From IMG/VR virus record IMGVR_UViG_2684622620_000012: DNA of 27,901 nt; one strand, given 5' to 3'. Below, one piece after another: positions 8,681 through 24,594 of the stretch; the stretch's first letter is position 1; each line of letters opens with the position of its first letter. The notes below the pieces were generated by a model that was not told where the DNA came from, ran no database searches, and was given only the letters and a program-made list of their open reading frames with translations. The position numbers and the translations under genes are program-made. Origin of the DNA: a virus (Duplodnaviria; Heunggongvirae; Uroviricota; Caudoviricetes).

Positions 8681-10088
8681 GTGGGCGCACATCATCACCG
8701 TCAATAGCGATTACGCCGTCACCTTCCAGCTTGTACAGCCAGCGCCGGAAGTTTTTCATCTCATACCCCAGCTTTTTCATGTCATCGCGCAACAACGGAA
8801 TAGTACATTTATCTCCGCGTTGCGTGCGTGAACGAATACAACCCCATAGTGCGGCGTGATTCTCCGTCTTGTTCCCAGCTTCCTCGATGCGCTCCAGTTC
8901 AACCGGCGGACGGGGCTTATCCTCCAGCACCAGCGACGTGATTAACTCCCCGCCCTCATCCTTGAAAAGCTCAACCTCGCGCAAATCGCAAGCCATTTCT
9001 TTCAGTTCCTCCGCATCCTTCATCTTGGTACATGCGATAACCAGGGCTTCACTGCCTGCACCTTCACGGCGTATCCGGTATTCTGCATCCAGTGCTGCAC
9101 GAAACGCACTGGAACCGCGCGCACCCTTTGTTTCATCCTTGCCGGAATGGTGAATTACCAGCACTGTAGCGCCTGTACGTCGTTTCAGTTCGTCACATCC
9201 ATGGACAAATGCCCCCATATCCCGCGCATCATTTTCATCGCTGCCACCAAAGCAACGCGCCAGAGTATCCAGAATAATCATGCGTACAGGTTTACCCGTT
9301 TCCTGCTCAACCTGTCGGGCAGCAATAACCATTTCATCAACATCACCCGGTGCGGCCGGAAAAATTGGACGATTTACCAGGTATAGATTTTTCACCTGCT
9401 CACTGTTCACCAGTTCCCATGCCTTGATACGACGAGGAACACCGATCCCGCCCTCACCAACGACATACATCACCGCACCATGTACAACCCTGCGACCTCC
9501 CCACGGGATACCGGTAGCAACATGACACGCCCACGAACACGCAAGGAACGACTTATAAGAACCGCTCGCACCGTATGTGCTACATAGCGAATTAGCCGGA
9601 ATCACGCCCTTAACTACATAGCTAAGCTGTGAATCATATCCTTCCGATCCAATGCTCATTGGTAGCGTGGTTTTTCGCTGGCTGTATTGCTCGTCAGTAA
9701 GTATTTCCCCGCGCTCAGCCTGTTCGCGGATCCGTTGCAGGTAGTCGTGCCAGTTCTCCGGCTCCCCGTCGGTGATACCTTTGTATAATTTCGCCTCCTG
9801 TACGCCAGCCAGCGCCAGCTTTTCAGCGATAGCATTGATCTGGATTGGTTCGATCTCCCCCGCGAGATAGACACGCGCAAAGCGGCGTTCATCGTCGACA
9901 ATGCGGATATTCGCCAGGTCTGCCAGTTGCTTTGGCCCCAGGTAAACAGGTGGTACGTTATCGCCGTGTTTTCGTCCTTCGCTTTCAATCCAGTGTTGAG
10001 CATGGGCGTAAGCATCCGTCCCGGCAAAAATGATTACCTCGGTGAATTTATCCTTCGGCTGATATTTTAAATTCGGTGCGTTTTTCAC
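8676..10088 (-). CDS. RecA-like NTPase, RepA/DnaB-type replicative helicase (AAA_25-like), 470 aa
   Basis: P-loop YGASGSYKS, Walker B-like MIILDTLARCF, and VLVIHHSGKDETKGARGSSAF typical of RepA/DnaB-family helicases; GTG start with GGGAGGT 6 nt upstream, overlapping the upstream stop. Confidence 0.7.
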   Translation of the reverse strand: MKNAPNLKYQPKDKFTEVIIFAGTDAYAHAQHWIESEGRKHGDNVPPVYLGPKQLADLANIRIVDDERRFARVYLAGEIEPIQINAIAEKLALAGVQEAKLYKGITDGEPENWHDYLQRIREQAERGEILTDEQYSQRKTTLPMSIGSEGYDSQLSYVVKGVIPANSLCSTYGASGSYKSFLACSWACHVATGIPWGGRRVVHGAVMYVVGEGGIGVPRRIKAWELVNSEQVKNLYLVNRPIFPAAPGDVDEMVIAARQVEQETGKPVRMIILDTLARCFGGSDENDARDMGAFVHGCDELKRRTGATVLVIHHSGKDETKGARGSSAFRAALDAEYRIRREGAGSEALVIACTKMKDAEELKEMACDLREVELFKDEGGELITSLVLEDKPRPPVELERIEEAGNKTENHAALWGCIRSRTQRGDKCTIPLLRDDMKKLGYEMKNFRRWLYKLEGDGVIAIDGDDVRPL

Positions 10089-10375
10089 TTCTTACCTCCC
10101 GCAACCAACATTGCCCGGATTTTTTTAATATTCGTGGCTGCACGTCTCGCCACCGCCTGTTGTTTGTTTTCAACCAGAATAAAATCACGCTCAAACTGAC
10201 GGCGCGGCATTACGCAGTCATATTCGTAAGCCTCACGGCGGTAGGTGATATTGCCTGGCGTAACGTGACGAATAACCACTCGTCCCCCACGTCTGGTGTC
10301 GCGGTAAATATCTCCGTGTCTGATTTCAGGCCGAGAGAGACCGCTGGCAGTAAAGCCAGAATTTTTCTTTTTCAT
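10085..10375 (-). CDS. hypothetical basic protein, 96 aa
   Basis: Member of a chain of tightly packed minus-strand small genes; stop overlaps the helicase GTG start. Confidence 0.5.
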   Translation of the reverse strand: MKKKNSGFTASGLSRPEIRHGDIYRDTRRGGRVVIRHVTPGNITYRREAYEYDCVMPRRQFERDFILVENKQQAVARRAATNIKKIRAMLVAGGKK

Positions 10376-10379
10376 GGTT

Positions 10380-10580
10380 TTATTTTCCTGTCAGCAGTTC
10401 CGGTTTTATTTCCGCACGAATACAAAGTTCAGAAAAAAATTCAGGAGAACCAACAATCTCATTACTTTTCAGTCGGCATTGTGATTTCACTTTCCCTTTA
10501 TCTAGGTAAACCAGTACGCGTCCGGTGAAATCATCTGGCACATTAAGCACTACGGGTACATGCGCTTCATGATTATGCAT
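10380..10580 (-). CDS. hypothetical protein, 66 aa
   Basis: Start overlaps the upstream gene stop; no recognised motif. Confidence 0.45.
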   Translation of the reverse strand: MHNHEAHVPVVLNVPDDFTGRVLVYLDKGKVKSQCRLKSNEIVGSPEFFSELCIRAEIKPELLTGK

Positions 10581-10806
10581 GGCTTACATCCTCCGTGAAT
10601 TTTCTTCTGTAACGCGTCTCTGCCACATATTCCGCATAGTCTGACGCAATACTAAGAATCATTTCACCCTCTGACTTGTAGCCACTGGTATTGATAAGAA
10701 AATATGCAGCTTTCATCATGTCAGCAACGCTCAACAATGCGCCCGCTGCATCTTCCTGTGCGCCATCAAATTCCCGTTTCAGGGAATTAAAACGATCATC
10801 ACGCAT
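10573..10806 (-). CDS. hypothetical acidic protein, 77 aa
   Basis: Start overlaps the upstream stop; no recognised motif. Confidence 0.45.
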   Translation of the reverse strand: MRDDRFNSLKREFDGAQEDAAGALLSVADMMKAAYFLINTSGYKSEGEMILSIASDYAEYVAETRYRRKFTEDVSHA

Positions 10807-11164
10807 GTTTACCCCCCTGAATGACCTGATAACCGCAACTGGTCAGCAACTCGATAAATTCCGGCAGTGTGCCGAAACAGCAATCATCACGCAGCCGTTC
10901 GCAGGATACCTCGACGCCGTTTTCGTAGTGACTCACCATACGTCCGGTAAAATGCAGATCATCATCGTGATGACTCGTTGACGGCTTAATCAGTCGCGCA
11001 CGTTCCGCCAGTTCCAGCAATGCTTCAACGCTTCCGGCAATTGCACCATCCGGCAGGTGATAATTACGCACTATGCGCCCGTTCTCCACATTGACCAGCA
11101 ACTGCCCGGTAAATTTCTCGTCAAACTGAATGCTGTTAAGGTCAGAAATTGACAGGTTATGCAT
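10799..11164 (-). CDS. hypothetical protein, about 121 aa
   Basis: ATG at 11164 with AGGAGG upstream, 2 nt after the upstream stop; the track ORF extends to 11182 without an RBS. Confidence 0.5.
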   Translation of the reverse strand: MHNLSISDLNSIQFDEKFTGQLLVNVENGRIVRNYHLPDGAIAGSVEALLELAERARLIKPSTSHHDDDLHFTGRMVSHYENGVEVSCERLRDDCCFGTLPEFIELLTSCGYQVIQGGKHA

Positions 11165-11381
11165 AGTGCACCTCCTGCACATCAGCCATGATAATTTTTC
11201 CGGCCTTATCCAGTGCCTGATCGGCTTTTAGCTGCACAAATGCTAAATAATGGAAGATGCATTCTGATTCTCTGGCTGCGTGTTTATGCGCCACACCAGC
11301 GATAGCAGAAATCTCAATAAGTGAATCCATCAGCGTTTTGATAGTGTCTACCGCTGCATCAGGCCATGTTGCATTACACAT
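11157..11381 (-). CDS. hypothetical protein, 74 aa
   Basis: ATG at 11381 overlaps the stop of the upstream gene. Confidence 0.45.
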   Translation of the reverse strand: MCNATWPDAAVDTIKTLMDSLIEISAIAGVAHKHAARESECIFHYLAFVQLKADQALDKAGKIIMADVQEVHYA

Positions 11382-11739
11382 GCTCCACCTCCTGGCGAAT
11401 ACGGGCAGTGAATACCATCACGCAGCCATCAGGAGATTGCTGGCGTGCTTCCTGTTCGCTGGTGGCCTCGATGTGAATCACGCGCGGTTGTGCCGTACTC
11501 AGGGCGATAAAACGCCATATAAAATTGTTTTCGCATTTCTGAATAAACAGCGTGTTTTCTTCGCGCCCTTTCCATGTTGCCGAGATATAGCCCATGTCAT
11601 TGAGCATCTTGCAGGCATCAACCAGCGTATCGGCGGCTACGTGTACAGTGTTTTTACCGTCAGCCATGCAATCACGGTGCACCGCCAGGAAGGTGTATAT
11701 AAATTTAGGGTGAGTTTGAGTATGCTGTGTTCCAGCCAT
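11374..11739 (-). CDS. hypothetical protein, 121 aa, first gene of the early operon
   Basis: ATG at 11739 with GAGGT 7 nt upstream; the track ORF runs on upstream to 12831 in the same frame, but that upstream part looks non-coding or frameshifted. Confidence 0.5.
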   Translation of the reverse strand: MAGTQHTQTHPKFIYTFLAVHRDCMADGKNTVHVAADTLVDACKMLNDMGYISATWKGREENTLFIQKCENNFIWRFIALSTAQPRVIHIEATSEQEARQQSPDGCVMVFTARIRQEVEHV

Positions 11740-11813
11740 AATCGTTACCTCATTTAACGGTTTGGTTAGACGCCCTGCATGTGTTGCGAGCACTGCGGGG
11801 CGTTGCTCTTTTA

Positions 11814-11861
11814 GGTGTATTTCACCTTTGCTTTTTAATTTACTTACTGGTGAAATACACT
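11814..11861. promoter_or_regulatory. operator-like inverted repeat GGTGTATTTCACC ... GGTGAAATACAC(T) in a divergent promoter region
   Basis: 12/13 bp inverted repeat separated by 22 bp, between the early operon start (11739) and the divergent RHH gene (11927); TATACT -10-like hexamer at 11891-11896. Confidence 0.5.
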
Positions 11862-11926
11862 TCAAGCCTTTTTTTATCATTTTTTTTGCGTATACTGACA
11901 TACACCAATTTTTAGGAGATCCAGAA

Positions 11927-12106
11927 ATGGCAACTGGTGCAAAGAACGCAAAATCACAAATGACAACTGTCAGAATCCCACATGAAGTAATGGATGATAT
12001 TGAGCAACTTAAAGAACCTGGCGAAAGTACCGCTGGTTTTTTAGTTACTGCTGCAAAAGGCGAGATCAAACGCCGCCAGCGCCGCAAGGCCAAAGAACAG
12101 GAGTAA
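11927..12106 (+). CDS. small ribbon-helix-helix-like regulator, 59 aa
   Basis: AGGAGAT SD 6 nt upstream of the ATG; MTTVRIPHEVMDDIEQL fits an RHH beta-strand plus helix; divergent from the early operon; basic C-terminal tail. Confidence 0.5.
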   Translation: MATGAKNAKSQMTTVRIPHEVMDDIEQLKEPGESTAGFLVTAAKGEIKRRQRRKAKEQE

Positions 12107-12823
12107 CCATCACCAGCGCCGTGGTGTGAGGGACTACGGTGCATCGTTTTACAGGGCAGCGCCATGACCAACAAAGAATCAACCAATACACCATCACCGG
12201 CACGGAAAAGACAGCGCAGAAAGATAGCGTACGAGCATGAGTCAAACAGATTCGCGCCCTGTGCGTTTATCCTTGAGAAATTCCTTAAAGAGTACAGGCG
12301 CACAAAAATGGGATCGCATACCTGGAAAACATCGCGGCATGGCGATGTTAAAGAGCAGGAATAGCCCACCAGCAAGCCAGCATATTCACCATAATGACCC
12401 TCAGTTAAACATAGAGTCATTGGTGCAAAGCTGACACATTGCCCACCAGCCGCAAATCTGGCATTGTTGGCGATGCGTTCAAGTATGTAGCTTTCCCACT
12501 GGCGGCCCTCTGCGGTCGCCTTTGTTTTATCCAGAACGAAATCAGACATCAGATTGATCAGCACCTGGCGACCTGACAAAATCGCATCAGTCGCGCCACC
12601 AGCAAAATTTTTTGCTTTTCGGACAGTGTGATCAACGACATTTTGCAGCAAAATATTCTGCATTTCTGGCGTGCTGTAGTAACGGTGATCAGCGCCTTCA
12701 CTCTGTGCGACCACAACGCTATAATCTGCCTCGTAGACAGTAAGCAATATGGCGCAGTAGGCTATTCGTTCACAAAGGCGCTCCGGCAACGGGGCGCTTT
12801 CTCTTTTTGTAACGGTCAGAGCG

Positions 12824-13624
12824 TTACACATGGCTGTTTTCCTCCATGCGACGGGCTAACCAACGCTGCGAAAGACGAATTAATTCAGCCTTCCGCTGGT
12901 GGTAGTCCTGGCCTAACTCAATCAGCGTGATATTGCTCTGCTCAAGGTAAGAAAGGTGCTCAAGCTGCAACGTGCTCATGTGGTCGCGTGGTTCGCCTGT
13001 AATGCCGTTCGCCAGTGCCCACTGTTTTGCAGTCATGCCACCCAGCACGATACGCGCCAGCATGCTCGCTTCCGTGGTGTAGTGGTGCTGGAGTGTGTTT
13101 TTACCCAGTTCAGCCCGGTACGCCTCCAGCGCGGCACACATTGGCTTAAAGTAGCTGGCAACTGTGATACGGGCTTTCAGTTCCCGGCGTAACGCTGCGG
13201 AACGAACAGGCGCAACCTTGTGTAGCTCCTCCTCGCATTTGATAAAGTACTGGCGAACGGCGCGGCCCTGTTCGGTACGTTCGACCATCGCCAGTTCTTT
13301 CGCCATGTTCACTGTGATGATGTACTCAAGAGCGGTTTGCTGGCGAGATTTTGCGCTCACCGGATCGGGTCGGCTCAAATATTCAACAACCTCATAATCC
13401 ACGCCTTCCGTGAACCCGTATTCTTCAATGCGCCCCTTGATCCACGAACGGAAAACGCGCCCTACACCTAACGCCTTATGTAACGCTCTGGCGCTAACAA
13501 TAGTGGTTTCACTCCCGCCAATAACGCCGGAAATAATCGGGATAATTTCGCCGAAATTTTGCAGATTCTGGTTTTCAGGCCGAACGAAGCCCCGCCCCTG
13601 TACGGGCGTTTTTGGAAATTTCAT
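12824..13624 (-). CDS. phage antirepressor-like protein (AntA-type N-terminal domain), 266 aa
   Basis: TTIVSARALHKALGVGRVFRSWIKGRIEEYGFTEGVDYEV resembles the AntA/AntB antirepressor N-terminal domain; downstream of alpA on the same strand. Confidence 0.6.
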   Translation of the reverse strand: MKFPKTPVQGRGFVRPENQNLQNFGEIIPIISGVIGGSETTIVSARALHKALGVGRVFRSWIKGRIEEYGFTEGVDYEVVEYLSRPDPVSAKSRQQTALEYIITVNMAKELAMVERTEQGRAVRQYFIKCEEELHKVAPVRSAALRRELKARITVASYFKPMCAALEAYRAELGKNTLQHHYTTEASMLARIVLGGMTAKQWALANGITGEPRDHMSTLQLEHLSYLEQSNITLIELGQDYHQRKAELIRLSQRWLARRMEENSHV

Positions 13625-13701
13625 AAAAACTCCTGCTATCGAATTAAGTTACTTTTATTTGCTGGTGGATAGCTGGGGGCAATAGCCCCGTAGCCATTTA
13701 A

Positions 13702-13899
13702 TCAGGTAGCTGTTCCGCGTGATTCCGCAATACGCTGATTAATCCACTCGTCAATTTCACTCTCAACGAAAGCAATAGCTCGCGAGCCAATTTTAACTGA
13801 TGCAGGAAATTTACCTTGCCCCATAAGGCGATAAATCCATGCCTTGCTATATCCAGTTCTACGCTGAACTTCTGTTAAACGAATAAGCGTATTTGACAT
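13702..13899 (-). CDS. alpA: AlpA-family transcriptional regulator, 65 aa
   Basis: LIRLTEVQRRTGYSKAWIYRLMGQGKFPASVKIGSRAIAFVESEIDEWI is a close match to the AlpA (CP4-57 regulatory protein) HTH signature. Confidence 0.85.
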   Translation of the reverse strand: MSNTLIRLTEVQRRTGYSKAWIYRLMGQGKFPASVKIGSRAIAFVESEIDEWINQRIAESRGTAT

Positions 13900-14093
13900 A
13901 TATTTACCTCATAACGTCTACTCAATTTGACGAGGTAATCATGGCACAGAAATAACGAATATTTTCATACCCTCAGGCCTAATGGTTACCGGAAGGAAAT
14001 TAACCCTAAGGGTGATGGTAAAATTGACGGGGAAGATAAAAAAATACCCTCAGGGTAACAGTAAATCACCCTCAGGGTATGCGGTATGGTGCG

Positions 14094-14891
14094 TTAATCC
14101 GGCTTTGCGTTCTTTTGGCTGTTGTCTCGGTTAATAGGGCAGGCAGTCCTCTCTATGAGCGTTGCAAGTGCATTACTTGCCCCCCACTGCTTAAGCTCCC
14201 TAGTTATCGCTTCTTGATTTCCCCTGGTGGCAAAATCATTTTCTGGATCGTAATTGGCCCACTCTCTGTTTCTAATCTCAATAGCCTTAGCTAATGGGTC
14301 TTTATCCCAGTATTTATATAAGTGTATCGGGCGCTCTTGCTCTAACTGCTCTATCCTTGCCCTTAACTCTGCGTTTTCTTTTTCCAGCATTGCGATTTGG
14401 GATAATAAATCATCCTCTGTACGCAACTCTTTCTTTTCAATATCGCGTCCTTGTGCCTCGTCATTTTCAGAAGAGTTAGCGCCTTCCAGCTTCGTTAACG
14501 CGTCAAGGACATCGGGAAAAATTGCGAAAATTTCACCCCTTATAAATCCAATGTTCTCAAATTCGGGATCTTCCCAATAACCGGACACCAGAAAACCATT
14601 TTCATCCCTCTCACCAGGTAAACAACCACGTTTCCGAACCGCATTCAGATTTCTATAAAGAACATCATAATCAAATTCATCCCGATACGGGTTACAAAAA
14701 GATTCCAACAGCTTAAATTCATTTACTGTGTACAGGCGGATATGTTCTCCGCTTATTCTCCTGAGTATCCAAGTTATGACATCTGAAACATCATAATCAT
14801 CACCAGCGACCTTAAGCACGACCTCAAGAAATTCACGTAAAGAAATAAAATCTTTTTTGTATTCGTTTAATTCGGCATGAATATCAATCAT
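14094..14891 (-). CDS. hypothetical protein with central coiled coil, 265 aa; cargo gene between int and alpA
   Basis: ATG at 14891 with GAGGT 6 nt upstream; leucine-zipper-like segment LLSQIAMLEKENAELRARIEQLEQE; lower GC than flanking genes; no recognised catalytic motif. Confidence 0.6.
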   Translation of the reverse strand: MIDIHAELNEYKKDFISLREFLEVVLKVAGDDYDVSDVITWILRRISGEHIRLYTVNEFKLLESFCNPYRDEFDYDVLYRNLNAVRKRGCLPGERDENGFLVSGYWEDPEFENIGFIRGEIFAIFPDVLDALTKLEGANSSENDEAQGRDIEKKELRTEDDLLSQIAMLEKENAELRARIEQLEQERPIHLYKYWDKDPLAKAIEIRNREWANYDPENDFATRGNQEAITRELKQWGASNALATLIERTACPINRDNSQKNAKPD

Positions 14892-15019
14892 ACGCACACC
14901 TCAGCGTCCTCTACTGTAGTGGCTGTACCAGTCCGTCGAGGTGTACGGATTTTCGGGAGCGACCCTAGACACAGCCTTTTCTTTCGTCGCTCAAAGTCTA
15001 CTACTGTATACGCAACCAG

Positions 15020-16234
15020 TCATCCACATTTTCCGAACTTGCCATGCACCACGTTACCGCCATGTTCGAGCGAATCCATATAGTCGGCGTACCACTGGAG
15101 CATCTCGCGCCGCCCGTCCAGATATTGCGCATGATTGTACGTGCCACGAATTGAGTTCTTATCAACGTGTGCAAGCTGCGTTTCTATCCACGCGGTGTTA
15201 TAGCCCTGCTCATGTAAAATCGTGCTCATGGTGTGCCGGAATCCATGACCAGTAACCTTTCCGTTATAGCCGATGCGTTTAAATACTTGGTTTATGCTAG
15301 CCTCGCTCATTGTTTTCCTTGGATCATTGCGGCCGGGAAACATAAGCGGATAATTACCAGTTAATTCTTTAATCTGCCCAATAAGAGAAAGAGCCTGCTT
15401 AGACAAAGGCACCACATGAGGGCGACGCATTTTCATCCGTGAAGCAGGTATCTCCCAGATAGCCTTGTTGAGATCGATTTCATCCCATAATGCACCGCGC
15501 AGTTCGCCAGTTCGCAAACCAGTGATAATCAGTAGACGAGCCGCCATAACAACCAATGCACTTCCTGAGTAACTGGACAATGCCTTGAAAAAATCAGGCA
15601 ATTCTTTGGCTGTGAGGAAAGGATAATGATTAGATTCATGGCCTTGCATCGCGCTAGTAAGATCTGGGGCAGGGTTATACTCTGCGCGACCAGTGACTAT
15701 TGCATAGCGGAAAACTTCCCCGCACCGCTGCCTCACTTTTTTGGCTTTTTCTGTAGCACCGCGCCCCTCGATGCGTCGCAGCACATTCAGAAGTTCAAGT
15801 GGTTTGATTTCGGCAATTGGTTTTTTGCCAATGTAAGGGAACACATCTTTGTTGAAGGCTTCGAGGATATCTGAAGCATAACCAGCAGACCATTTTTTTA
15901 ATTTGCTGCTGTGCCACTCAAGGGCAATATCTTTGAAGGTATTGTTTAACTGCGTTTCCCGGGCAATCTTTTCCTCTCGTTTCGCTTCCATCGGATCGAT
16001 ACCCCCAGCGATACCCCTTTTAGCTTCTTCACGTTTTGCACGAGCATCAGCCAAGGTAACTTCAGGATACACACCTAGTGCTAACAGCTTCTCTTTACCA
16101 GCTACACGATATTTAAAGCGCCAGTATTTTCCTCCACTAGGTTTTACCAGGAGATACAGACCACCACCATCAGCCAGCTTGTAAGCCTTCTCTTTTGGCT
16201 TGGCAGTGTCTATTTGACGGGCATTGAGTTTCAC
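15020..16234 (-). CDS. int: tyrosine integrase, P4-type (DUF4102 N-terminus plus phage integrase catalytic domain), 404 aa
   Basis: N-terminal KLNARQIDTAKPKEKAYKLADGGGLYLLVKPSGGKYWRFKYR is the hallmark of P4-family integrases; C-terminal HGFRHT...LAH...RGTY contains the catalytic residues; GTG start with GGAGGT upstream. Confidence 0.9.
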   Translation of the reverse strand: MKLNARQIDTAKPKEKAYKLADGGGLYLLVKPSGGKYWRFKYRVAGKEKLLALGVYPEVTLADARAKREEAKRGIAGGIDPMEAKREEKIARETQLNNTFKDIALEWHSSKLKKWSAGYASDILEAFNKDVFPYIGKKPIAEIKPLELLNVLRRIEGRGATEKAKKVRQRCGEVFRYAIVTGRAEYNPAPDLTSAMQGHESNHYPFLTAKELPDFFKALSSYSGSALVVMAARLLIITGLRTGELRGALWDEIDLNKAIWEIPASRMKMRRPHVVPLSKQALSLIGQIKELTGNYPLMFPGRNDPRKTMSEASINQVFKRIGYNGKVTGHGFRHTMSTILHEQGYNTAWIETQLAHVDKNSIRGTYNHAQYLDGRREMLQWYADYMDSLEHGGNVVHGKFGKCG

Positions 16235-16342
16235 TTGGGGGTACCTCCACTAAACCGAACAGCAAATACCCCCAAAAGTACCCCCAATTGACTGTAGATT
16301 TTGGGGTACTTAAGTAGACGTCAAAAGACTAAAAGGGGCGCT
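16234..16342. repeat. cluster of GTACCCCCAA / GGGGTAC motifs and AAGGGGCGCT upstream of the integrase
   Basis: TTGGGGGTACC (16235-16245, inverted), ATACCCCCAAAAGTACCCCCAA (16266-16287), TTTTGGGGTACTTAAG (16299-16314, inverted), AAAAGGGGCGCT (16331-16342); one copy each also at 5963-5990. Confidence 0.5.
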
Positions 16343-16562
16343 AACATGCGGATTATAAGAGGTTTTTAAATACTTGAGTAGACTTGGGGAGACGTTAGAA
16401 TGGTGCCGATAATAGGAGTAAAACACTCGATTAATCTCGTGTTAATGCCATCACCTACGACCATTACTAATTGATTGAATCTTATAGAAAAAATCATCAT
16501 TTTCTATGCGTTACAATCAATTTTCACATTACAAACGCTCCGACACTTTAGCCGGGGAGTTT

Positions 16563-17840
16563 ATGAGATACAAGCCCAATCAATACATAATCTGTGATTC
16601 TTACGGTAACTACTATTTAAGGATCACGCTGCCTGTGTATATGCAGCCCTTTTTTGAAGGAAAAAGGACGTTTGTCAGAAGTCTACACACAAGTAATCTT
16701 CGTGTTGCACGTAGAAAGCGTGATCAGATTGCAGATGAATACCATTGTCTACGGGAGAGTGTCGCCCCTGTAAACAGCACAATAGAGAACACGCTGGAAC
16801 TGTTACGCAGTAAGGCTAAATACGCCAAAACAGCTACCAGAATGCAAGATACAGCGTCTTCGTGTCCGTCATTGCTTAAAATTCTTGAAATCTACCTGAC
16901 AATTAACAGCACGAAGAAGAAGCCAGCCACTTTAGCTAAAGCAAGAAAAGCGGTAGAGATGTTTCTCTCCTACCGTAAAAAGCCTGATATTGCATTGCAA
17001 GATGTGAGCCGCACCACTGTTACAGGCTGGATTGAACACATGCAAAAAACCCTTTCACAACAATCAATTGCAAATTATATCAGCCCAATGGCCCAGCTAT
17101 GGGAATTAGCTTCATCACGTTACCACGATGCGCCAGAAAGGGCGCTCTCCCCCTGGCGAGGGCATAGGCTTGATGTGGCACAAAGTAGAGAGAGCTACGA
17201 GGCATTTTCTAACAAAGAGCTATTGCAGGTGTTGCAAGTATTTTCCGGTAATTCAGCAGAAAACAAAGAAATGATGGCTTTGTGTCTTATCGGTGCTTAT
17301 ACAGGTATGCGGATCAATGAGATAGCAAGTCTCACAATAGACGATGTGAAAGAGATCGAAGGTGTGCTGTGTTTTGAAATCACACAGGGAAAAACGAAAG
17401 CTGCGGCACGTGTTGTGCCTGTACATAGCCTTATCACTCCGTTGGTGTTGTCGCTGCGTGAAAAGCCTCATAATGGCTTTTTGTTCTATCACGCCAGCAT
17501 TACAGAGCGTGTAGATGGTAAACGTTCCACGTGGCACACGCAGAGATTTACAAGAGCTAAACGAAAGGCTTTAGGGGAAAAGGGAACAGAAAGGAAGGTG
17601 TTTCATTCTCTGAGACACGGAGTAGCACAGCTTCTTGATCGAAATCAAATTCCAGAAGACAGGATCGCCCTTCTCCTGGGCCATACACGCGGTAAAACGG
17701 AGACATTCCGCACATATAGCAAGAATGCAGCTTCTCCAGTAGAGCTTAAAAAATATATTGAGCTTCTACGCTACCCTGAAATAGAGAAAGGCTTATCAAT
17801 CAATAAAAAATCAAATTTAAGGCGTAAAACAACGCCATAG
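16563..17840 (+). CDS. tyrosine recombinase/integrase (second, divergent), about 425 aa
   Basis: C-terminal catalytic signature FHSLRHGVAQLL ... LLGHTRG ... TFRTYSK (R, H-x-x-R, H, Y); ATG at 16563 preceded by GGGGAG; the track ATG at 16506 lacks an SD. AT-rich. Confidence 0.8.
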   Translation: MRYKPNQYIICDSYGNYYLRITLPVYMQPFFEGKRTFVRSLHTSNLRVARRKRDQIADEYHCLRESVAPVNSTIENTLELLRSKAKYAKTATRMQDTASSCPSLLKILEIYLTINSTKKKPATLAKARKAVEMFLSYRKKPDIALQDVSRTTVTGWIEHMQKTLSQQSIANYISPMAQLWELASSRYHDAPERALSPWRGHRLDVAQSRESYEAFSNKELLQVLQVFSGNSAENKEMMALCLIGAYTGMRINEIASLTIDDVKEIEGVLCFEITQGKTKAAARVVPVHSLITPLVLSLREKPHNGFLFYHASITERVDGKRSTWHTQRFTRAKRKALGEKGTERKVFHSLRHGVAQLLDRNQIPEDRIALLLGHTRGKTETFRTYSKNAASPVELKKYIELLRYPEIEKGLSINKKSNLRRKTTP

Positions 17841-17847
17841 ACGTAAT

Positions 17848-17880
17848 AAAGAGGCTTCAACATAGATTGGTAGCCTCTTT
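17848..17880. terminator. bidirectional hairpin AAAGAGGCT...AGCCTCTTT between convergent genes
   Basis: Perfect 9 bp inverted repeat with 15 nt loop and flanking A/T runs, in the 80 bp gap between the recombinase stop (17840) and the 17922..18635 gene stop. Confidence 0.55.
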
Positions 17881-17921
17881 TATAATTACATCGTTACAGA
17901 GCGTTTTAGAGGCGTTTACGG

Positions 17922-18635
17922 CTATTCCTGTTTAAAGGCAGGAGTAATAGTGTCTTCACCTTCACTACTTGATTTTTCAGTGTTAACACGTTTTTTCATA
18001 TTCGCCCCGATGTTCTTAGATGGCTGTGTTTTGATAGCTACAGTGTTTACAGTGCCATACGAAACGAGCCTGATCTGCTCAAAGCTAAGATCAAATACCA
18101 GGGATTCGCTTGCCTCTTCTGTGTATTCGATGCCTGTTAAAACAACGTTCTCAAAAGTTTTATTTTCTGTAACAAGAAGAAAAGGCTGTCTACTGTCCAT
18201 AATCTGATTCAGGTAGTCTATAGCTAATGATCTTCTGTTCCCGTTCACCCCTGCACTCTTTAACAAGCCAGGATCGCTTTTAATCGGTGTTTCAGTGATC
18301 CTACCTTTAAGAGAAAACTTATTGTTTTTAATTTGAACGTGATCAGACACAGTAGCACCATTTTCTACAGGATAGCTAGTAACATCTGCTTGACGTTTTA
18401 CGTTCACATCGTCTACACTGTCAAAAGCCAGTGCCATATAATTTTCATAAACGTCATTGCCAGAAGAAGCCAAGCCACTGGTAACAATAGCAAATCCGTT
18501 CTCTCCTTTTGTTGTATTAGCTTTGCTATTTTCGTTTTTTGTAGAGTTTATATCTTGTTCTGCTTTGTAAACAGCCTGAACGTGTTGTTCTGGAGTATTT
18601 GCTGCACGTATGGTTAAAATCCCGGCGGTCGCCAT
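17922..18635 (-). CDS. hypothetical protein, 237 aa (possible virion/tail-associated protein)
   Basis: Immediately downstream of the tape-measure-like gene; AAGGAAA SD; no motif recognised. Confidence 0.5.
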   Translation of the reverse strand: MATAGILTIRAANTPEQHVQAVYKAEQDINSTKNENSKANTTKGENGFAIVTSGLASSGNDVYENYMALAFDSVDDVNVKRQADVTSYPVENGATVSDHVQIKNNKFSLKGRITETPIKSDPGLLKSAGVNGNRRSLAIDYLNQIMDSRQPFLLVTENKTFENVVLTGIEYTEEASESLVFDLSFEQIRLVSYGTVNTVAIKTQPSKNIGANMKKRVNTEKSSSEGEDTITPAFKQE

Positions 18636-18669
18636 AATAATAATTTTCCTTGTAATGTTATGGCGGGAA

Positions 18670-20508
18670 TTACCCGCCGTTGGATTGTCCTGATAAGCTG
18701 GTTAATGTTAATGATTTCAAGAAGCTATCCCGACTTGCTCTTGCTGTAAAATCCACATAATCGCTTAATCTTGATGTGTCAGAATTAATAGTAAGAGGAA
18801 CCTCTGTTACCACTTCAAATGTAGGATTCAGATTAAACACAGGAGATAAATTATAAGCCGGAGTTGTCATTGCAAGATTATTTAAAGCACCCTGTTTGAG
18901 ATTGGTTATCGGTGCTTCATTGACTGACATTTTTACATCTGACACAGAAGATTTATCATCGAAAAGCAATCCCTTAATCGTGTTAAAGAGAGAATGACTA
19001 TTATCAGGTGTAGTTGTTGCAGTGCCAGCGCCTTTATATTGGTCAGGAACGAGATTAGAAAGATTCTGTTTCATTCCTTCATTGCTTAATGGCGGTGCAT
19101 CACCTAAATTTTTCTGAATAGCCTCTGTCTTATCATCATTACGATTAAACCAGTTTACAATCTTCATAATAGCTTCAAAGAGACTTCCTGTAGCTTCTCC
19201 CAGCTTCGTAAAATACGGAGTGAGATTAGAAAGGTTTTTCATAAACTCTTCCGTTACTTTTGGATCAAGAGATTTCATAAAGCCGTCTACGAATGCTACT
19301 TGTCTTGCATCAGAAAGCTGTGAAAGCTGTCTGTTTAGTTCTCTGAATTTAACGATAGATTCTTGCTGTGTTTCTGTTAGCCATTTTCCAGAGGCTTTTT
19401 GCTGGTTAATACTTTCTTGTACATCTTTAACGGAACGTTGCCAATATTTTGACGTAAGCATCAAATCATCGCCCAGGTCTTCTAAACGTTGTCCAATTTG
19501 AGAATCTGAAAACCCTTTTTTCATCATTCCATTAACAGCCTTAGAAATTAATCCAGCCGGATTATCAGCAAATTTTTTAAGGTCGCTTTTGTTAATAACA
19601 CCGATGTTTAGAAGTTCATTAATAGCGTTATCACCGCCTTTCCATTCAGATTTTCCGGTTTTCTTGTCTTTCACCAATTCAGCTTCACTGTAGGATTTTG
19701 CGGCACGTTCCCTAACATCTTTCATCTGATCCAGGTATTTTCTAGCCCCTTGATCACCCATCATAGAGTCAACGCCGTTTTTATACGCCCATTCTGTAAT
19801 ATTATACATCTGGTTAACGTCTACACCGCCAAGCCTTGCACGTTGGATCAATTCCCCTTGTGTCTCAGCATTGGCAAAACTATTAGCAACGAATTCGTTT
19901 GCTTTACTCATAGCCATCACGCCAGCAGCCGCTGTAGCGCCTCCAAATAACAGAGCGCCCATAGTGGCGGCATTCCCTGATCCTCCCTTAACAGGTGCAT
20001 AGGCTTTAGCGTGAGCGTTACGATTGCCATTAATCTTACGTTGTTGTTGTTGTAAGCGTTTCATCTGGCTATTCATACGTGCAAGCGAGATAGCCCCTTG
20101 CTCATATTGTTTTGCTATCTCTCTAGCCTGTGCAATAGCTTTATATTGTTCCGCTACAGAGAGGCGGTGCATTGCACTAATGCTTGATCCAACGTCTAAC
20201 AGTTTTAAGGCTGCCTTCTCACTGCGTGCTGCTATTTGTGCCTGTTGCCTTGCCTGTGCTCTTGCTGCGGCAGCTTGTGCTCTTTGATTCTGTTTTTCGG
20301 TTTTAGCTTTCTGTTGAGCAATCTTGTCTACTTCGTTTTGTGCTTTCTTATAGCCTTTAGTGACATTATCAAACCTTAATTTAGCTGGCTTGATATTTTC
20401 TGCGAATTCCTTTAAGCCTGTAATAGAGTCTTTCGCTTTTTTCAAGCTGTCTTTATCTACACTAAATGTAACTGTGTTCTTAATTTTAGAAGTGTTAATT
20501 TCTAACAT
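18670..20508 (-). CDS. tape-measure-like protein, 612 aa (long coiled coils plus Gly/Ala-rich hydrophobic segment)
   Basis: N-terminal Q/A/K/R-rich coiled-coil region and GALLFGGATAAAGVMAMS segment resemble phage tail tape-measure proteins; AAGGGGA SD; assignment is by composition only. Confidence 0.45.
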   Translation of the reverse strand: MLEINTSKIKNTVTFSVDKDSLKKAKDSITGLKEFAENIKPAKLRFDNVTKGYKKAQNEVDKIAQQKAKTEKQNQRAQAAAARAQARQQAQIAARSEKAALKLLDVGSSISAMHRLSVAEQYKAIAQAREIAKQYEQGAISLARMNSQMKRLQQQQRKINGNRNAHAKAYAPVKGGSGNAATMGALLFGGATAAAGVMAMSKANEFVANSFANAETQGELIQRARLGGVDVNQMYNITEWAYKNGVDSMMGDQGARKYLDQMKDVRERAAKSYSEAELVKDKKTGKSEWKGGDNAINELLNIGVINKSDLKKFADNPAGLISKAVNGMMKKGFSDSQIGQRLEDLGDDLMLTSKYWQRSVKDVQESINQQKASGKWLTETQQESIVKFRELNRQLSQLSDARQVAFVDGFMKSLDPKVTEEFMKNLSNLTPYFTKLGEATGSLFEAIMKIVNWFNRNDDKTEAIQKNLGDAPPLSNEGMKQNLSNLVPDQYKGAGTATTTPDNSHSLFNTIKGLLFDDKSSVSDVKMSVNEAPITNLKQGALNNLAMTTPAYNLSPVFNLNPTFEVVTEVPLTINSDTSRLSDYVDFTARASRDSFLKSLTLTSLSGQSNGG

Positions 20509-20519
20509 TTAAAATCCCC

Positions 20520-20723
20520 TTAATCATTTTTACCACCTTCTTTACTTAAGAAATGGTGTAGAGCCTGATCAATACTCTCGTTTAATCTGAACATACGGGC
20601 TTTTACTCCTTCATATGGAACATCTAGGAGAGAACAGAGATATTTCAGATTTAACAAGCCTCTAGAATCATTAGCATCTAAATGTACGTGTACACCATTT
20701 TTTGATTTCAAAATCACTTCCAT
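20520..20723 (-). CDS. hypothetical small protein, 67 aa
   Basis: Strong SD GAGGTGA upstream of the ATG; 11 bp before the tape-measure-like gene. Confidence 0.5.
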   Translation of the reverse strand: MEVILKSKNGVHVHLDANDSRGLLNLKYLCSLLDVPYEGVKARMFRLNESIDQALHHFLSKEGGKND

Positions 20724-20753
20724 ATTTTAATCACCTCTCAAAATTTAAAAAAA

Positions 20754-20779
20754 TAAAAAAAAAGGCGAAGCGTGAATAC
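20754..20779 (-). terminator. hairpin followed by a T9 run (minus-strand sense) after the 342 aa gene
   Basis: GCGTG-AATA-CACGC core stem within GGCGAAGCGTG...CGCCACGCC; on the minus strand it is followed by TTTTTTTTTATTTTTTT. Confidence 0.4.
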
Positions 20780-20808
20780 ACGCCACGCCTCTAATACACG
20801 TTAAAATA

Positions 20809-21837
20809 TTATTTAACTGTGATCTGCACAGAGAAGCCAACACCGTGGTTTACCACCATCTGGCTATTCTCTGTAACAACGTTAACAGCATCACCACGAG
20901 AAGATTCATAGCTATAGCTGTACACCTCAGCAGGAGCGGCATTAATCAGTTCAAAGGTGCTGGAAGCCGCCCCATAGATGGCCTGGTAGACGTTAGAGCA
21001 TTTAGCGAATTTAGGCACGGCTACAGCGTCAGCGGTCATATGTGCAAGGTGTAGCGGATCTACCAGTTTAACAACATCAATGTTAGTTCCTGGAATAGTG
21101 AACGCTGTCACCCCTGGCAGCAGGTCACGACGCTGATACACAACGTTCCCTTCTTCCAGTGGGCTTACATACTGGAATGCGTTTGCCATACCCGCAGAGA
21201 ATCGAATTGCAGAGAAGGCTTCCGGCTTACAGAAAACAACAATACGCTCTACAGCAGCCGCCTGGCTTTGTGCTTTCTCGATAATGTCAGTAGCAATCTG
21301 ATCAAATTCTTTAAAAATCTTCGTGGTGTCAGTGCTGGAGGCGTTAACAGTGGCTTTCATAGGTGTCACATTAAACAGCTTGCCCCACTCGATAAGAACA
21401 TCATCAGTTTTCGGGGTGTAGGTGCGACCACTAAACAGAGAAGCAGCCAATACGCTCTCTTTTGTACGCTGATACGCTACGTGGTGTTTAGCAACATAGT
21501 CAGCATAGATATCAGTGAGTGTTTCCTGAAAATCAGTGCCAGGCTTACGCTTGCCTTGCACGTCCTGCGGTTTGATCAGGTCTTGCCTTAAAAAGTACGG
21601 AATTTCAATAAGATATTCTTTACCTTGTTCTCGCTTAGTAACGTTGTGTTCAGAAGAGAAACGAGAGGTTTCTTTGTTGAACAGAGATTCGTTGCTTTCG
21701 ACAAGCTGGGAAACAGCTACTTTATGAGATGTAACCCCTACAGAATCCGTAAAATCAAGAGTAGAGAGCAGATAGTTTCTAGTGCTATGAGCCTGGAAAA
21801 GCGGAGCTAAATCAACGTAATCATTACCTAGAATCAT
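20809..21837 (-). CDS. phage structural-like protein, 342 aa (major capsid or major tail candidate)
   Basis: Size and position (after two small genes, before a terminator and the tape-measure-like gene) fit a major structural protein; no diagnostic motif recognised, so capsid versus tail is unresolved. Confidence 0.4.
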   Translation of the reverse strand: MILGNDYVDLAPLFQAHSTRNYLLSTLDFTDSVGVTSHKVAVSQLVESNESLFNKETSRFSSEHNVTKREQGKEYLIEIPYFLRQDLIKPQDVQGKRKPGTDFQETLTDIYADYVAKHHVAYQRTKESVLAASLFSGRTYTPKTDDVLIEWGKLFNVTPMKATVNASSTDTTKIFKEFDQIATDIIEKAQSQAAAVERIVVFCKPEAFSAIRFSAGMANAFQYVSPLEEGNVVYQRRDLLPGVTAFTIPGTNIDVVKLVDPLHLAHMTADAVAVPKFAKCSNVYQAIYGAASSTFELINAAPAEVYSYSYESSRGDAVNVVTENSQMVVNHGVGFSVQITVK

Positions 21838-21855
21838 TTATTATTATTCCTTTTA

Positions 21856-22218
21856 TTAAGAAGTGAAAACTGTATTAAAGCCTTCAAGCTGGAAGCCTTT
21901 TTTAATTAATGCTGTTTTTGCTGCTTCACTTACAGCATTCAGCGCATCAGCTTTGATGCAGACAAGCCCAGCATTGCTACGTAAAACATCTACAGGCTTG
22001 TTTTCTCCAGCCGTTACAAATTCACTCATAACAACATAAATATCATCTCCTGATTCATATATAGCGCCAGTGCTGGTGATCAAGTCTCCGCATTCAACAT
22101 CAGCAGAAAGAGAAGCAAAAACCTTGCTTTCTACAGAGGCAAACGGATCAGTACAATAACTTACAATATCTGTGAAAGTCTTTCGGACTGGAAACAGAGT
22201 GTCTAAATCAATAATCAT
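21856..22218 (-). CDS. hypothetical protein, 120 aa (possible decoration/connector-type structural protein)
   Basis: ATG overlaps the upstream stop (ATGA); positional inference only. Confidence 0.45.
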   Translation of the reverse strand: MIIDLDTLFPVRKTFTDIVSYCTDPFASVESKVFASLSADVECGDLITSTGAIYESGDDIYVVMSEFVTAGENKPVDVLRSNAGLVCIKADALNAVSEAAKTALIKKGFQLEGFNTVFTS

Positions 22219-22427
22219 TTAGTAATCTCCTTAGCTTTTAATTTGATTAATTCATTAAGGGAAGGTGTAGACGGAGAAGAAGGAGAAAAATATTTTTCAA
22301 CACATCTTTCTACTTCCTCTACAGAACACCCAGCGTATTTAGCTACCATTTCGGTAATTTGTGGATTGATCTTTAGCATTTCATCGCGATACTTGATGAT
22401 TTGCTCTTTATCATTTAAAAACAACAT
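22215..22427 (-). CDS. hypothetical protein, 70 aa
   Basis: ORF with a weak SD; first gene after the terminator at 22495-22521. Confidence 0.4.
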   Translation of the reverse strand: MLFLNDKEQIIKYRDEMLKINPQITEMVAKYAGCSVEEVERCVEKYFSPSSPSTPSLNELIKLKAKEITK

Positions 22428-22494
22428 TTATATAAACCTTGTTACCTTGTTTAAAGTAAGAAATACAACTTTTAAGTTGCATAACGGGCAAAAT

Positions 22495-22521
22495 AAAAGG
22501 CAGCATTTAAAGCCGCCTTTT
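22495..22521. terminator. hairpin AAAAGGCAGC-ATTTAAA-GCCGCCTTTT
   Basis: 10 bp stem with one mismatch, A-run 5' and T-run 3'; separates the upstream early-type genes from the structural-like genes. Confidence 0.45.
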
Positions 22522-22770
22522 ATTAACTTGTACCTATGTAATTACCCTATGTTATGCATACTCCAAGATGTATGCATAACAAAGGAAAAAAGAGGTAATA
22601 ATGACACTTAAGGAGGAGGAGAAGCGGGGAGCGGAGATTTTACTCCCCTTTAATGACAGGAAGAATTTTTAATATCGAACCAATAAAGGAAAAATAATCA
22701 CCCTATATAATTATATTAACATACAATAGATGAAATGTCAAGATATTTTACAACTTTTTTGTTGCTTTTT

Positions 22771-23106
22771 TTATTCTTCTGTGATAACGGCTAAGCGTTG
22801 AGCGAGTTCGATAAGGCCATCTCCCACATAGCGAACATCAGATTCAATATCTTCTATCCAGTTTGATAGCTCCCATATCTGATCGGCTGTCAGGTATGCG
22901 TTCTCACGCTTACAGAGCATCTCTACACGCTTAGAGAGGTTCTCAAAGGCATTCACAGCTAAATCCCAGTGTTTAAACGCCTCATTTAGTGCCGCTGGGG
23001 TGTTTTCTTTGTATGCTTCAAGTTCAGCGCGGTTTAAAGGCAGGAGGTAATCATCCTCATAATAATTAATTAGTGAGTAAATTGTATCATACGTGTTTTT
23101 GTTCAT
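22771..23106 (-). CDS. hypothetical acidic protein, about 111 aa
   Basis: ATG at 23106 with GGAGA upstream, 1 nt after the upstream stop; the track ORF starts at 23133 without an SD. Confidence 0.45.
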   Translation of the reverse strand: MNKNTYDTIYSLINYYEDDYLLPLNRAELEAYKENTPAALNEAFKHWDLAVNAFENLSKRVEMLCKRENAYLTADQIWELSNWIEDIESDVRYVGDGLIELAQRLAVITEE

Positions 23107-23107
23107 A

Positions 23108-23518
23108 TTAAAAGTCTCCATAGTGATCAGCATTATCTAGAATTTGGAATTCAGGAACTAAATTATTTAGGCCATTGGTGGCGAGATAACCAACGTAGTG
23201 ATTATAATCTTCAAATCCTAAAATCTGGTATTTGCGTAAATCAGAGCTGTCAACAATATACTCTTTTCTTTTTCTAGGTTTCCAGAATACGCCAGGTGTT
23301 GAAGATAAGATTTCTTGTAATGCGATATATTCATCTCCACAAGGCACAGAGGGAGAATGTTCTATGATCTCTGTTTTCCATTCGCCAGGGGCGCTATTAT
23401 GCTTGGTGAGCGTAACTAGCTCTTTAAAGTCTTTGCGTCTTAGAATAGATTTAGGTTTACTTAGAAGAGAAGCTGAATCACCGATCTTCTTAACAACGTT
23501 GTTTTTTCTTTTTGCCAT
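23108..23518 (-). CDS. hypothetical protein with basic N-terminus, 136 aa
   Basis: AAGGAAAA SD; N-terminal MAKRKNNVVKK suggests nucleic-acid binding; no motif recognised. Confidence 0.5.
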   Translation of the reverse strand: MAKRKNNVVKKIGDSASLLSKPKSILRRKDFKELVTLTKHNSAPGEWKTEIIEHSPSVPCGDEYIALQEILSSTPGVFWKPRKRKEYIVDSSDLRKYQILGFEDYNHYVGYLATNGLNNLVPEFQILDNADHYGDF

Positions 23519-23650
23519 TATTTACTTTTCCTTTTCTTTTAAAGGAAAACACCCCGAAATATGTTTCTAACGTGAGAAAGAACAATAACCAATACATAGC
23601 TACTATCATAATAATGTTTTCCTTTTATATTTTAATTAAATAGAGAGATT

Positions 23651-23929
23651 TTAGAGAGTGGAATAGATGAATTCTATTTCTTTATCTAGTCTTTTGAGAT
23701 TGAATGTAGAGAAAGATAATTCTTTAATCTCTATAACACCGAAATTTGATAGCTGTTTAAGCCAGAATTTTAAACCATCTTCAGAGCACCCTGCTCGATG
23801 TAACACATCGCTATATTTTAGCGGTGTTGGCTTTCCTTTATAGAGGTAAGCAAGTGTTTCGTAGATGCGTTTTCCTGTGTCATTACACTGAATTCTGTCT
23901 ACTTGATTTTTTACTAAATATTGAATCAT
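23651..23929 (-). CDS. hypothetical protein, 92 aa
   Basis: Strong SD TAAGGAGGG upstream of the ATG. Confidence 0.5.
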   Translation of the reverse strand: MIQYLVKNQVDRIQCNDTGKRIYETLAYLYKGKPTPLKYSDVLHRAGCSEDGLKFWLKQLSNFGVIEIKELSFSTFNLKRLDKEIEFIYSTL

Positions 23930-23940
23930 AACCCTCCTTA

Positions 23941-24594
23941 TTAAAATGGAATATCAAAGTCATCATACACATTTGGGTAATGCTTAGAAAAATATGCCTC
24001 AATACCATTTGGTAGCTTTAACCTGTGCTTATAGGCTAACGATGTTGCAAATTCTATAAAGGATGCTCCTGCTGTTCTGGTGTTTTTCTGCTGGCAGATA
24101 AGAGAGGCAAAATTCTCTAACACATCCTCCTCATTATCATTAGCTACTTTTTCACTTGATGAAACAGGTGTTTCTTCCGTCTCCCACGGCAAAGGCGCAT
24201 CCCAATCATCAAGAACATCAAAAGAAGACTCTTTATTATCTTCCGTAGGGGGAAGCTGATCAGGAACAGCTTTAACAGTAGCTTCTTGTTGTGTCTGGGC
24301 TTCTTGTCTAGCTTCTTCTTGTGGAATATCTACCACTTGATAGACATTAGAACTTCCTGGTCGTGCATCTTTTATAATTAATCCCATTTCGAGCAATTTC
24401 TTAACCCTTTCCTCTGCTGCTCTTGGTGTTATGCCAAAAACATCGCCTATCTTAGCGTAAGAGGGAAATGCACGATCAAACCCTTTCAGATAGCAGTAAA
24501 GGTTTTTAGCACTATCTGTAAATTTATGCCCGTTTACTTGGCTTATTTTTAGAATCCACATAGGAACTTTTACAAATTGTTCTTCATTAATCAT
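23941..24594 (-). CDS. winged-helix DNA-binding protein with acidic C-terminal region, 217 aa (replication-initiator-like)
   Basis: AKNLYCYLKGFDRAFPSYAKIGDVFGITPRAAEERVKKLLEMGLII resembles winged-helix N-terminal domains of replication initiators/replisome organisers; AAGGAG SD. Confidence 0.45.
   Translation of the reverse strand: MINEEQFVKVPMWILKISQVNGHKFTDSAKNLYCYLKGFDRAFPSYAKIGDVFGITPRAAEERVKKLLEMGLIIKDARPGSSNVYQVVDIPQEEARQEAQTQQEATVKAVPDQLPPTEDNKESSFDVLDDWDAPLPWETEETPVSSSEKVANDNEEDVLENFASLICQQKNTRTAGASFIEFATSLAYKHRLKLPNGIEAYFSKHYPNVYDDFDIPF

Follow-up and report, generated by a model that had tools for sequence, protein, structure and literature searches.

Two divergent tyrosine recombinase genes and the thrW-derived att core between them in an Escherichia coli island

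The recombinase genes and their spacer

The DNA considered here, which we call the window, is the whole 27,901-nucleotide stretch of IMG/VR virus record IMGVR_UViG_2684622620_000012. It matches many complete Escherichia coli chromosomes, where it forms an island at the tRNA-Thr gene thrW; the best full-length match places this island between yagU/ecp on one side and thrW-proA on the other, the site being thrW, adjoining proA, and the window ends about 0.6 kb short of thrW. Within the window two tyrosine recombinase genes, a P4-type int and a gene that we call int2, are transcribed away from each other out of a shared spacer. This spacer is very probably a hybrid attachment (att) site, formed where two independent integrative elements, arranged in tandem at thrW, meet: a left element, to which int belongs, and a right element, to which int2 belongs. 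The features of the junction are as follows.

15020-16234, minus strand: gene for a P4-family tyrosine integrase of the left element, 404 amino acids (aa), GTG start, GGAGG upstream
16235-16246, minus strand: arm-type repeat R1 (TTGGGGGTACCT; the minus strand reads TACCCCCAA), abutting the start of int
16264-16287, plus strand: tandem pair of 12-nt arm-type repeats (AAATACCCCCAA AAGTACCCCCAA), collinear with the P4 pair 3942-3965
16300-16311, minus strand: fourth, inverted repeat copy (TTTGGGGTACTT), degenerate in related loci L010, L011 and L012
16308-16319 and 16372-16383, plus strand: direct repeats ACTT(A/G)AGTAGAC in the P arm, conserved in all six aligned loci
16400-16419, minus strand: att core, a 20-nt copy of the thrW 3' end, serving the right element as attR and the left element as attL
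16420-16562, plus strand: int2-side arm, constant in every int2 locus whatever its left neighbour
16563-17840, plus strand: int2, a DUF6538-type tyrosine recombinase gene (DUF6538, SAM_5 and Phage_integrase domains)

The P4-type integrase has the domains Arm-DNA-bind_3 (PF13356, 3.6e-29), Phage_int_M (PF22022, 1.3e-34) and Phage_integrase (PF00589, 4.8e-26), and is 43% identical to P4 Int over 405 aa, that is, over its full length (E 2e-117). Its catalytic R, HxxR, H and Y are kept, with LRTGELR, HGFRH, LAH and GTY aligning to the P4 residues, and the corresponding R, HxxR, H and Y can be read in the sequence of int2. Between the two proteins BLASTP returns an E value of 0.018 and 25% identity over 106 aa, and to judge from this alignment the two recombinases are related at the superfamily level only. 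RefSeq annotation of near-identical loci starts int2 at the ATG at 16563, giving a spacer of 328 bp (16235-16562).

An earlier note on this DNA, written by a model from the letters and a list of open reading frames (ORFs), had described a P4-type integrase gene on the minus strand and an unrelated recombinase gene on the plus strand, diverging from a spacer of about 330 bp that is rich in GGGGTAC/GTACCCC inverted repeats. All of this holds. The repeats are real and exceed expectation, given that GGGGTAC occurs five times exactly in the 27.9-kb window vs 1.1 times expected, and they are clustered, with three GGGGTAC copies and one TACCCCC variant falling within 16235-16311. The note went too far in seeing a sharp compositional boundary with a strongly AT-rich right side: GC content is 45.6% for 1-16399 vs 38.6% for 16420-27901, that of the coding sequences is 43.8% for int2 vs 47.3% for the P4-type int, and there is no clean GC step at 200-bp resolution across the window. 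Its statement that the spacer lacks a tRNA gene is correct as far as genes are concerned, as ARAGORN, run on the whole window, detects neither a tRNA nor a tmRNA gene. However, a 20-nt tRNA fragment is below the reach of ARAGORN and calls for direct comparison with thrW, and by such a comparison the search for a tRNA remnant that the note had proposed does find one: 16400-16419 (ATGGTGCCGATAATAGGAGT) reproduces exactly the final 19 nt of thrW together with one base of its flank.

The thrW core in related genomes

The note had also proposed comparison with genomes that lack one or both elements, and had named as the contrary case a single conserved unit in which the two recombinases always occur together. 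No such unit is found. Among 5426 complete E. coli genomes, 416 carry int2; the P4-type int together with its arm is carried by 509 genomes. A 241-bp junction query matches 1039 genomes, with the two arms contiguous in 73 only, while the other matches end at query position 130 or begin at 110/111, which correspond to 16419 and to 16399/16400 of the window. The core is the sole block common to all junction types: everything to its left travels with the P4-type integrase, and everything to its right with int2. The empty site, reconstructed in silico as chromosomal flank plus thrW, is intact in 948 genomes, many of them at 100% identity.

Each element is also found without the other. Window positions 1-16417 are 100.0% identical in strain APEC20/16 and 1-16419 are 99.9% identical in UTAK-5, homology stopping at these points. 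In UTAK-5 the left element lies directly on an intact thrW, its integrase gene 165 bp from the tRNA gene, and the same integrase family is 165 bp from an intact thrW in L010, L011 and L031; relatives whose integrases are ~93% identical likewise sit directly on thrW. In APEC20/16 (our locus L002) the thrW-proximal slot holds a complete 43-kb prophage with its own integrase, with the left element behind it and the proximal core at 22400-22419. The right element is alone in strain E2865, as 12.4 kb between thrW and a perfect core repeat (L014 3444-15810). Elsewhere the left neighbour of int2 is a bare chromosomal flank (LysR pseudogene/paoD), yagU with an integrase relic, either of two other prophage integrases, or a truncated P4-type int by vat, the last being the arrangement in strain 95-3322. 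Across the 31 loci that we compared, the core is found between freely combining flanks, four types on the left and three on the right, and in three loci (L019, L022 and L029) a further insertion has come between thrW and the int2 element itself. A thrW-adjacent relative in O111 strain RM9322, examined for the distal end, has an island cut down by deletions and insertion sequence (IS) elements.

A separate observation concerns locus L012, where a different 439-aa tyrosine recombinase (3414-4733) stands back-to-back with a P4-type int 86% identical to the present one and a DUF4942 gene is next in order; the divergent-integrase layout thus recurs at thrW with other partners.

From these comparisons, we place the boundary between two integrative elements, both predicted to target the 3' end of thrW, at 16400-16419. 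Junction repeats of the tRNA 3' end and independent occurrence, the two marks of elements accreted in tandem at a tRNA hotspot, are both present here, and the junction is a textbook case of elements stacked at a tRNA gene. The earlier note's view that two mobile elements meet in the spacer is therefore supported by their independent occurrence, but its head-to-head arrangement is not, since the two are arranged in tandem, with their att sites oriented alike. The genes diverge only because the P4-type int occupies the tRNA-proximal end of the left element and int2 the tRNA-distal end of the right element. Nor need the missing tRNA gene be called unusual for a P4-type integrase, as the note had it, given that the element appears to have been displaced from thrW by a second insertion, keeping the 20-bp core.

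The order along the chromosome would be thrW, the right element (~13 kb, with int2), the 20-bp core, the left element (~19 kb, with the P4-family int), a degenerate core and the chromosome. Given that the left element occurs at thrW by itself but also behind the int2 element or an unrelated prophage, the simplest history has it arriving first. It would have been resident when the right element entered the regenerated thrW, pushing the left element and its integrase gene ~13 kb away from the tRNA gene. With three direct copies of the core, each element could then excise alone, or both could excise together.

The degenerate core at the far end of the left element can be read in APEC20/16 (L002 3052-3070) and in a second variant (L001 5351-5369). 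It reads ATGGTGC-GATAATAGGAAC and matches the core at 17/20 positions, with one deletion and two mismatches. The variant is identical in these two genomes despite their different chromosomal flanks and is therefore element-borne. Such a core suggests that strand exchange of the left element takes place within ATGGTGC, the first 7 nt of the core and the extreme 3' end of the tRNA gene.

Other occupants of this site include the vat island of extraintestinal pathogenic E. coli (ExPEC) and CP4-6 of K-12, which we take to occupy thrW. These and the Sakai prophages Sp1 and Sp2 share the chromosomal site of the present locus and differ from it in their pair of elements. In O157 Sakai, Sp1 and Sp2 are both at thrW, Sp2 being P4-like (PMC8190617, PMC2669165), and thrW is among the most frequently targeted tDNA hotspots (PMC7545054).

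The P4-type att site and the alternatives

The repeats in the spacer have their counterparts in P4, whose GenBank record annotates an arm repeat at 3915-3926, a pair at 3942-3965, a 20-bp core at 4078-4097 and a second pair at 4151-4174. R1, filling the interval from the Shine-Dalgarno sequence to the start codon of int, agrees in position and orientation with the P4 'attP arm sequence repeat' 3915-3926. The tandem pair lies ~30 bp upstream of the int start region, and the gap between it and the core is 112 nt, as in P4. At the far end of the left element there is a second tandem pair (ATACCCCCAAAA GTACCCCCAATA; L002 3130-3153, L001 5430-5452), which in APEC20/16 and the second variant is read 59 nt beyond the distal core, vs 53 nt in P4. 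The motif is one base off that of P4, (A/G)TACCCCCAA here vs (A/G)TGCCCCCA there (TACCCCC vs TGCCCCC). R1 is invariant in six related loci, and the tandem pair is kept with it, copies 1-3 being invariant among loci whose integrases are just 86-93% identical.

Homology to P4 identifies 16235-16399 as the int-proximal arm of a P4-type att site and the repeats as counterparts of the P4 arm repeats. The left element shares with the P4 integration module (Int, Vis and attP at leuX) the domain architecture of the integrase, at the 43% identity noted above, a Vis/AlpA-type excisionase, a 20-bp core that is the 3' end of a tRNA gene, and nearly the same layout of 12-mer arm repeats: a single copy where int starts, two in tandem at 112 nt from the core and two more in tandem on the other arm. 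The two differ in that P4 targets leuX and the left element thrW, in the motif, and in the imperfect distal core of the left element. We infer that the repeats are arm-type sites bound by the integrase; its N-terminal arm-binding domain would bind the repeats on both arms to form an intasome, with the AlpA/Vis homologue giving directionality to excision. The ACTT(A/G)AGTAGAC repeats are candidate sites for an accessory protein, either a recombination directionality factor (RDF) or one of the IHF type.

Negative autoregulation of int through R1 and the tandem pair is probable, because these repeats lie in the int leader/promoter region. The int gene of P4 is reportedly under negative regulation by Int and Vis, going by the title of the 2006 paper of Piazzolla et al. 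A promoter scan of the DNA gave fewer sites than were found in shuffled controls and so carries no information on this point. A similar arrangement is known from KplE1 (CPS-53), with IntS and TorI at argW, where, as here, int adjoins attL by the tRNA gene's 3' end. In that system arm-type and RDF sites overlap the int promoter, and negative autoregulation of int by IntS has been shown (PMC2951348). The positions of R1 and the pair suggest that the same logic may apply to the left element, although KplE1 has an integrase of another lineage and another RDF (TorI).

Two recombinase genes that diverge from a shared spacer with short inverted repeats could, taken by themselves, be one unit, either an invertible switch, for which fimB/fimE with fimS is the model, or a paired XerC/D-like module. 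We find this scarcely credible, given that the genes are independent in hundreds of genomes, that the spacer is chimeric, broken at the thrW core, and that all repeats lie on the side of the P4-type int and recur at the far end of its element; moreover, no aligned locus has the segment between the repeats in the other orientation, the inverted copies are only ~20-35 bp apart, and the layout as a whole is that of the P4 attP. The repeats might alternatively be operators, for AlpA/Vis or for a repressor, rather than arm-type sites. Their place is suggestive in this respect, R1 and the tandem pair being within the int leader/promoter region, and the title of Piazzolla et al. is said to have Vis, besides Int, repressing P4 int. 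Yet the same 12-mers as in the tandem pair are present at the far end of the element, away from the int promoter, the P4 record names the homologous repeats as attP arm repeats, and the integrase has an arm-DNA-binding domain. We therefore regard operators in place of arm sites as very unlikely, and it is important to note that the two roles are not exclusive.

The history of the locus could also be the reverse of the one proposed, the right element having come first and the P4-type element later, into the distal 20-bp core of the right element as a secondary attB. The final sequence would be identical, and crossover of the P4-type element seems to be confined to ATGGTGC, which the repeat would supply. 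A 20-bp remnant offers less tRNA context than P4-type integration normally requires, which counts against such an event. So does the finding of the left element, over 16.4 kb at 99.9-100% identity, directly on thrW in UTAK-5 and behind another prophage in APEC20/16; these settings fit an older resident with turnover on its thrW-proximal side. We consider the reversed history unlikely, while noting that integration into a prophage attR has been shown in the case of Sp10 at Rac in K-12 (PMC2669165). It may be objected, finally, that the right side is a decaying prophage remnant and int2 a functionless relic. The right-element ORFs of the window include no terminase, portal or lysis gene, and none is annotated in the ~0.6 kb beyond; there is an ORF-poor stretch of 1.8 kb; and int2 is split by IS600 in some strains (e.g. 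08_3449). Against this, the element keeps a constant size (~12.4-13.2 kb), with thrW at one end and a perfect 20-21-bp repeat at the other, its 14 intact ORFs are 93-99.5% identical at the aa level in 15-19 loci from diverse strains, int2 itself is 98-99.5% identical in 19 loci, and the element has its own initiator-like gene and iteron array and is present in the 416 genomes counted above. A relic is thus highly improbable; by this conservation the right element is judged not to be a decaying remnant.

We return to our preferred reading, of the spacer as a hybrid att site between two elements in tandem, against which several points can be raised. The fourth repeat copy is not conserved and is without an annotated counterpart in P4, making its function doubtful. 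The distal core is imperfect, and excision of the left element may be inefficient or its crossover confined to ATGGTGC. Both outer ends are taken from near-identical relatives, and the activity of either integrase and any binding to the repeats are predicted from sequence. The order of insertion, moreover, is not provable from one window, given that the reverse order gives the same sequence.

The two elements and their significance

The left element includes genes for AlpA, AntA, an Icd-like protein, a RepA-like helicase, ProQ and PerC. Its features outside the junction are listed here.

1-16399, minus strand: left element (partial), ~19 kb, with a P4-type integration module; ~2.9 kb more lies beyond the window start, up to the distal core
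13702-13899, minus strand: candidate AlpA/Vis-type excisionase (RDF), Pfam Phage_AlpA PF05930, E 2.4e-19
14908-14975, minus strand: int-alpA RNA motif (Rfam RF02996), full-length, cmscan 45.5 bits vs a gathering threshold of 35.8

The AlpA homologue, whose gene lies 1.1 kb downstream of int, shares 37% identity with P4 ORF88 (Vis), described as 'excisionase and transcriptional regulator'. Between int and alpA, directly downstream of the integrase stop codon and before the next ORF, lies the int-alpA RNA motif, the only match in the window to Rfam at gathering thresholds. A tblastn search of the window with 13 P4 proteins recovered int, vis and a 40-aa fragment of alpha only, and the P4 hallmarks sid, psu, delta and epsilon were not found in the left element by this search of the window. 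The last ~2.9 kb of the element, outside the window, carries GapS1 and no annotated P4 gene in APEC20/16. The left element thus differs from P4 in being without sid, psu, delta, epsilon and cI and in keeping a mere 40-aa trace of alpha, and on this gene content it is not, as a whole, a P4-like satellite; its integration module clearly belongs to the P4 family. Replication of the left element seems to rely on the RepA-like AAA_25 helicase (8676-10088).

The alpha fragment just mentioned (7970-8089, minus strand) is 47% identical over its 40 aa to residues 586-625 of the P4 alpha primase, and is the only trace of alpha. Further along, 11374-12831 (minus strand) is a stop-free frame of 485 codons, unusually long for chance, that has no Pfam match; RefSeq relatives annotate its last ~121 codons as an Icd-like gene and place small plus-strand genes across the rest. 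GapS1 is an anti-phage gene, lying in APEC20/16 at L002 3843-5441, ~0.6-2.2 kb beyond the window start, as cargo by the distal att site. PADLOC, run on ten left-element proteins, found no known defence system except a weak PDC-S22 match on the AntA protein.

The right element, which in L001 spans 21621-34787, is phage-like and has int2 as its only recombinase gene. Its features beyond int2 and the int2-side arm are as follows.

16420-27901, minus strand: right element (partial), phage-like, ~12.4-13.2 kb, ending at thrW ~0.6 kb past the window
17922-20508, minus strand: Dit-like tail-tube initiator and tape-measure-like genes (Pfam Dit_like, PHROG 16051)
20809-21837, minus strand: major capsid protein (Phage_cap_E), 20-25% identical to capsids of Pakpunavirus/KIL-type lytic myophages
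23941-24594, minus strand: candidate winged-helix, O-like replication initiator (PHROG replication-initiator families)
26244-26387, plus strand: iteron-like array of five ~23-bp copies (TAACAGAATTCTGTGGGGGTGTC) in the ORF-poor stretch 25200-27000 (~1.8 kb)

The int2-side arm, which presumably holds the int2 promoter, contains a palindrome at 16422-16443 and an inverted repeat at 16469-16491/16500-16522. It also contains, at 16453-16467, a pseudo-tRNA remnant, ACCTACGACC-ATTAC, that matches the T-arm/anticodon-arm part of thrW and is set off from the core by a 33-nt insert with the palindrome. By its sequence the remnant looks like a trace of a longer ancestral tRNA-like attP segment. The words ATTGATT and TTACAAACGC, common to the int2-side and thrW-proximal arms, were considered as arm sites for int2 and rejected as too short to convince. 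Near the thrW-proximal end of the element, at 27409-27446, there are three tandem 10-bp units (TTATAGCTAT-like).

Four genes of the right element are common to Stephanstirmvirinae phages. The tail-tube initiator and tape-measure genes adjoin each other, as they do in these phages; their DNA is 72-76% identical to that of the phages, and the proteins are 61% (initiator) and 28-55% (tape measure) identical to those of phage PaulScherrer, with the same gene order. The winged-helix protein is 82% identical over its N-terminal 119 aa to a protein of Phapecoctavirus Mt1B1_P17, the range across Mt1B1_P17 and BI-EHEC being 76-82%, and a 55-aa ORF matches proteins of phages muut and inny at 95-100% identity. 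The Pakpunavirus/KIL-type lineage, to which the capsid is distantly similar, is reported to be related to Stephanstirmvirinae (PMC12846349). Matches to the capsid gene in IMG/VR are prophage calls from isolate genomes, not virion DNA. Between loci the winged-helix gene is the one variable module of the element, its product being 39-94% identical where its neighbours are 93-99% identical, which suggests that a replication module has been exchanged. The iteron array is a candidate origin of replication for the right element; its counterpart in E2865 is a 3-kb stretch without annotation (L014 4206-7168).

We also asked whether strains in which int2 is split are O157 Sakai-like, a result that could have identified the right element with Sp1; strain 08_3449 just has an IS600 in int2, and no link to Sp1/Sp2 was obtained.

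The right element has an integrase and, by prediction, replication functions, and lacks packaging and most virion genes, which is the make-up by which satellites are recognised. It resembles capsid-forming phage-inducible chromosomal islands (PICIs), PLE and P4-like satellites in being small and integrative, with its own integrase, an initiator with iterons and a capsid gene; like satellites with structural genes, it is without a terminase or portal and shares several genes with one phage group. It differs from them in that its combination of capsid, tape measure and tail-tube initiator was found described for no satellite family, and in that its related phages, putative helpers at most, are the virulent, ~150-kb Stephanstirmvirinae. 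We found no paper on such an element, on a satellite at thrW, or on satellites of Phapecoctavirus/Stephanstirmvirinae. Our suggestion that the right element belongs to an undescribed family of phage satellites, or is an interference island, acting on virulent Stephanstirmvirinae myophages of ~150 kb (Phapecoctavirus/Justusliebigvirus) is accordingly a tentative one, which we think possible rather than likely. On this suggestion, it would exploit or sabotage these phages with its own capsid, tape-measure and tube-initiator proteins.

The value of these results is mainly for annotation, in that two islands sharing a major E. coli integration hotspot are given an exact boundary, 16400-16419. This explains how a P4-type integrase comes to be without an adjacent tRNA gene, and the conspicuous repeats can be given a known function through their homology with the P4 attP. 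Tools that need a tRNA gene next to an integrase will miss displaced elements such as the left element, and the result therefore bears on the automatic delimitation of islands and satellites. If the right element is indeed a satellite of virulent Stephanstirmvirinae, it would bear on therapy with those phages and on phage-parasite diversity, and thrW would then stack two different phage parasites on one att core, able to excise or move together.

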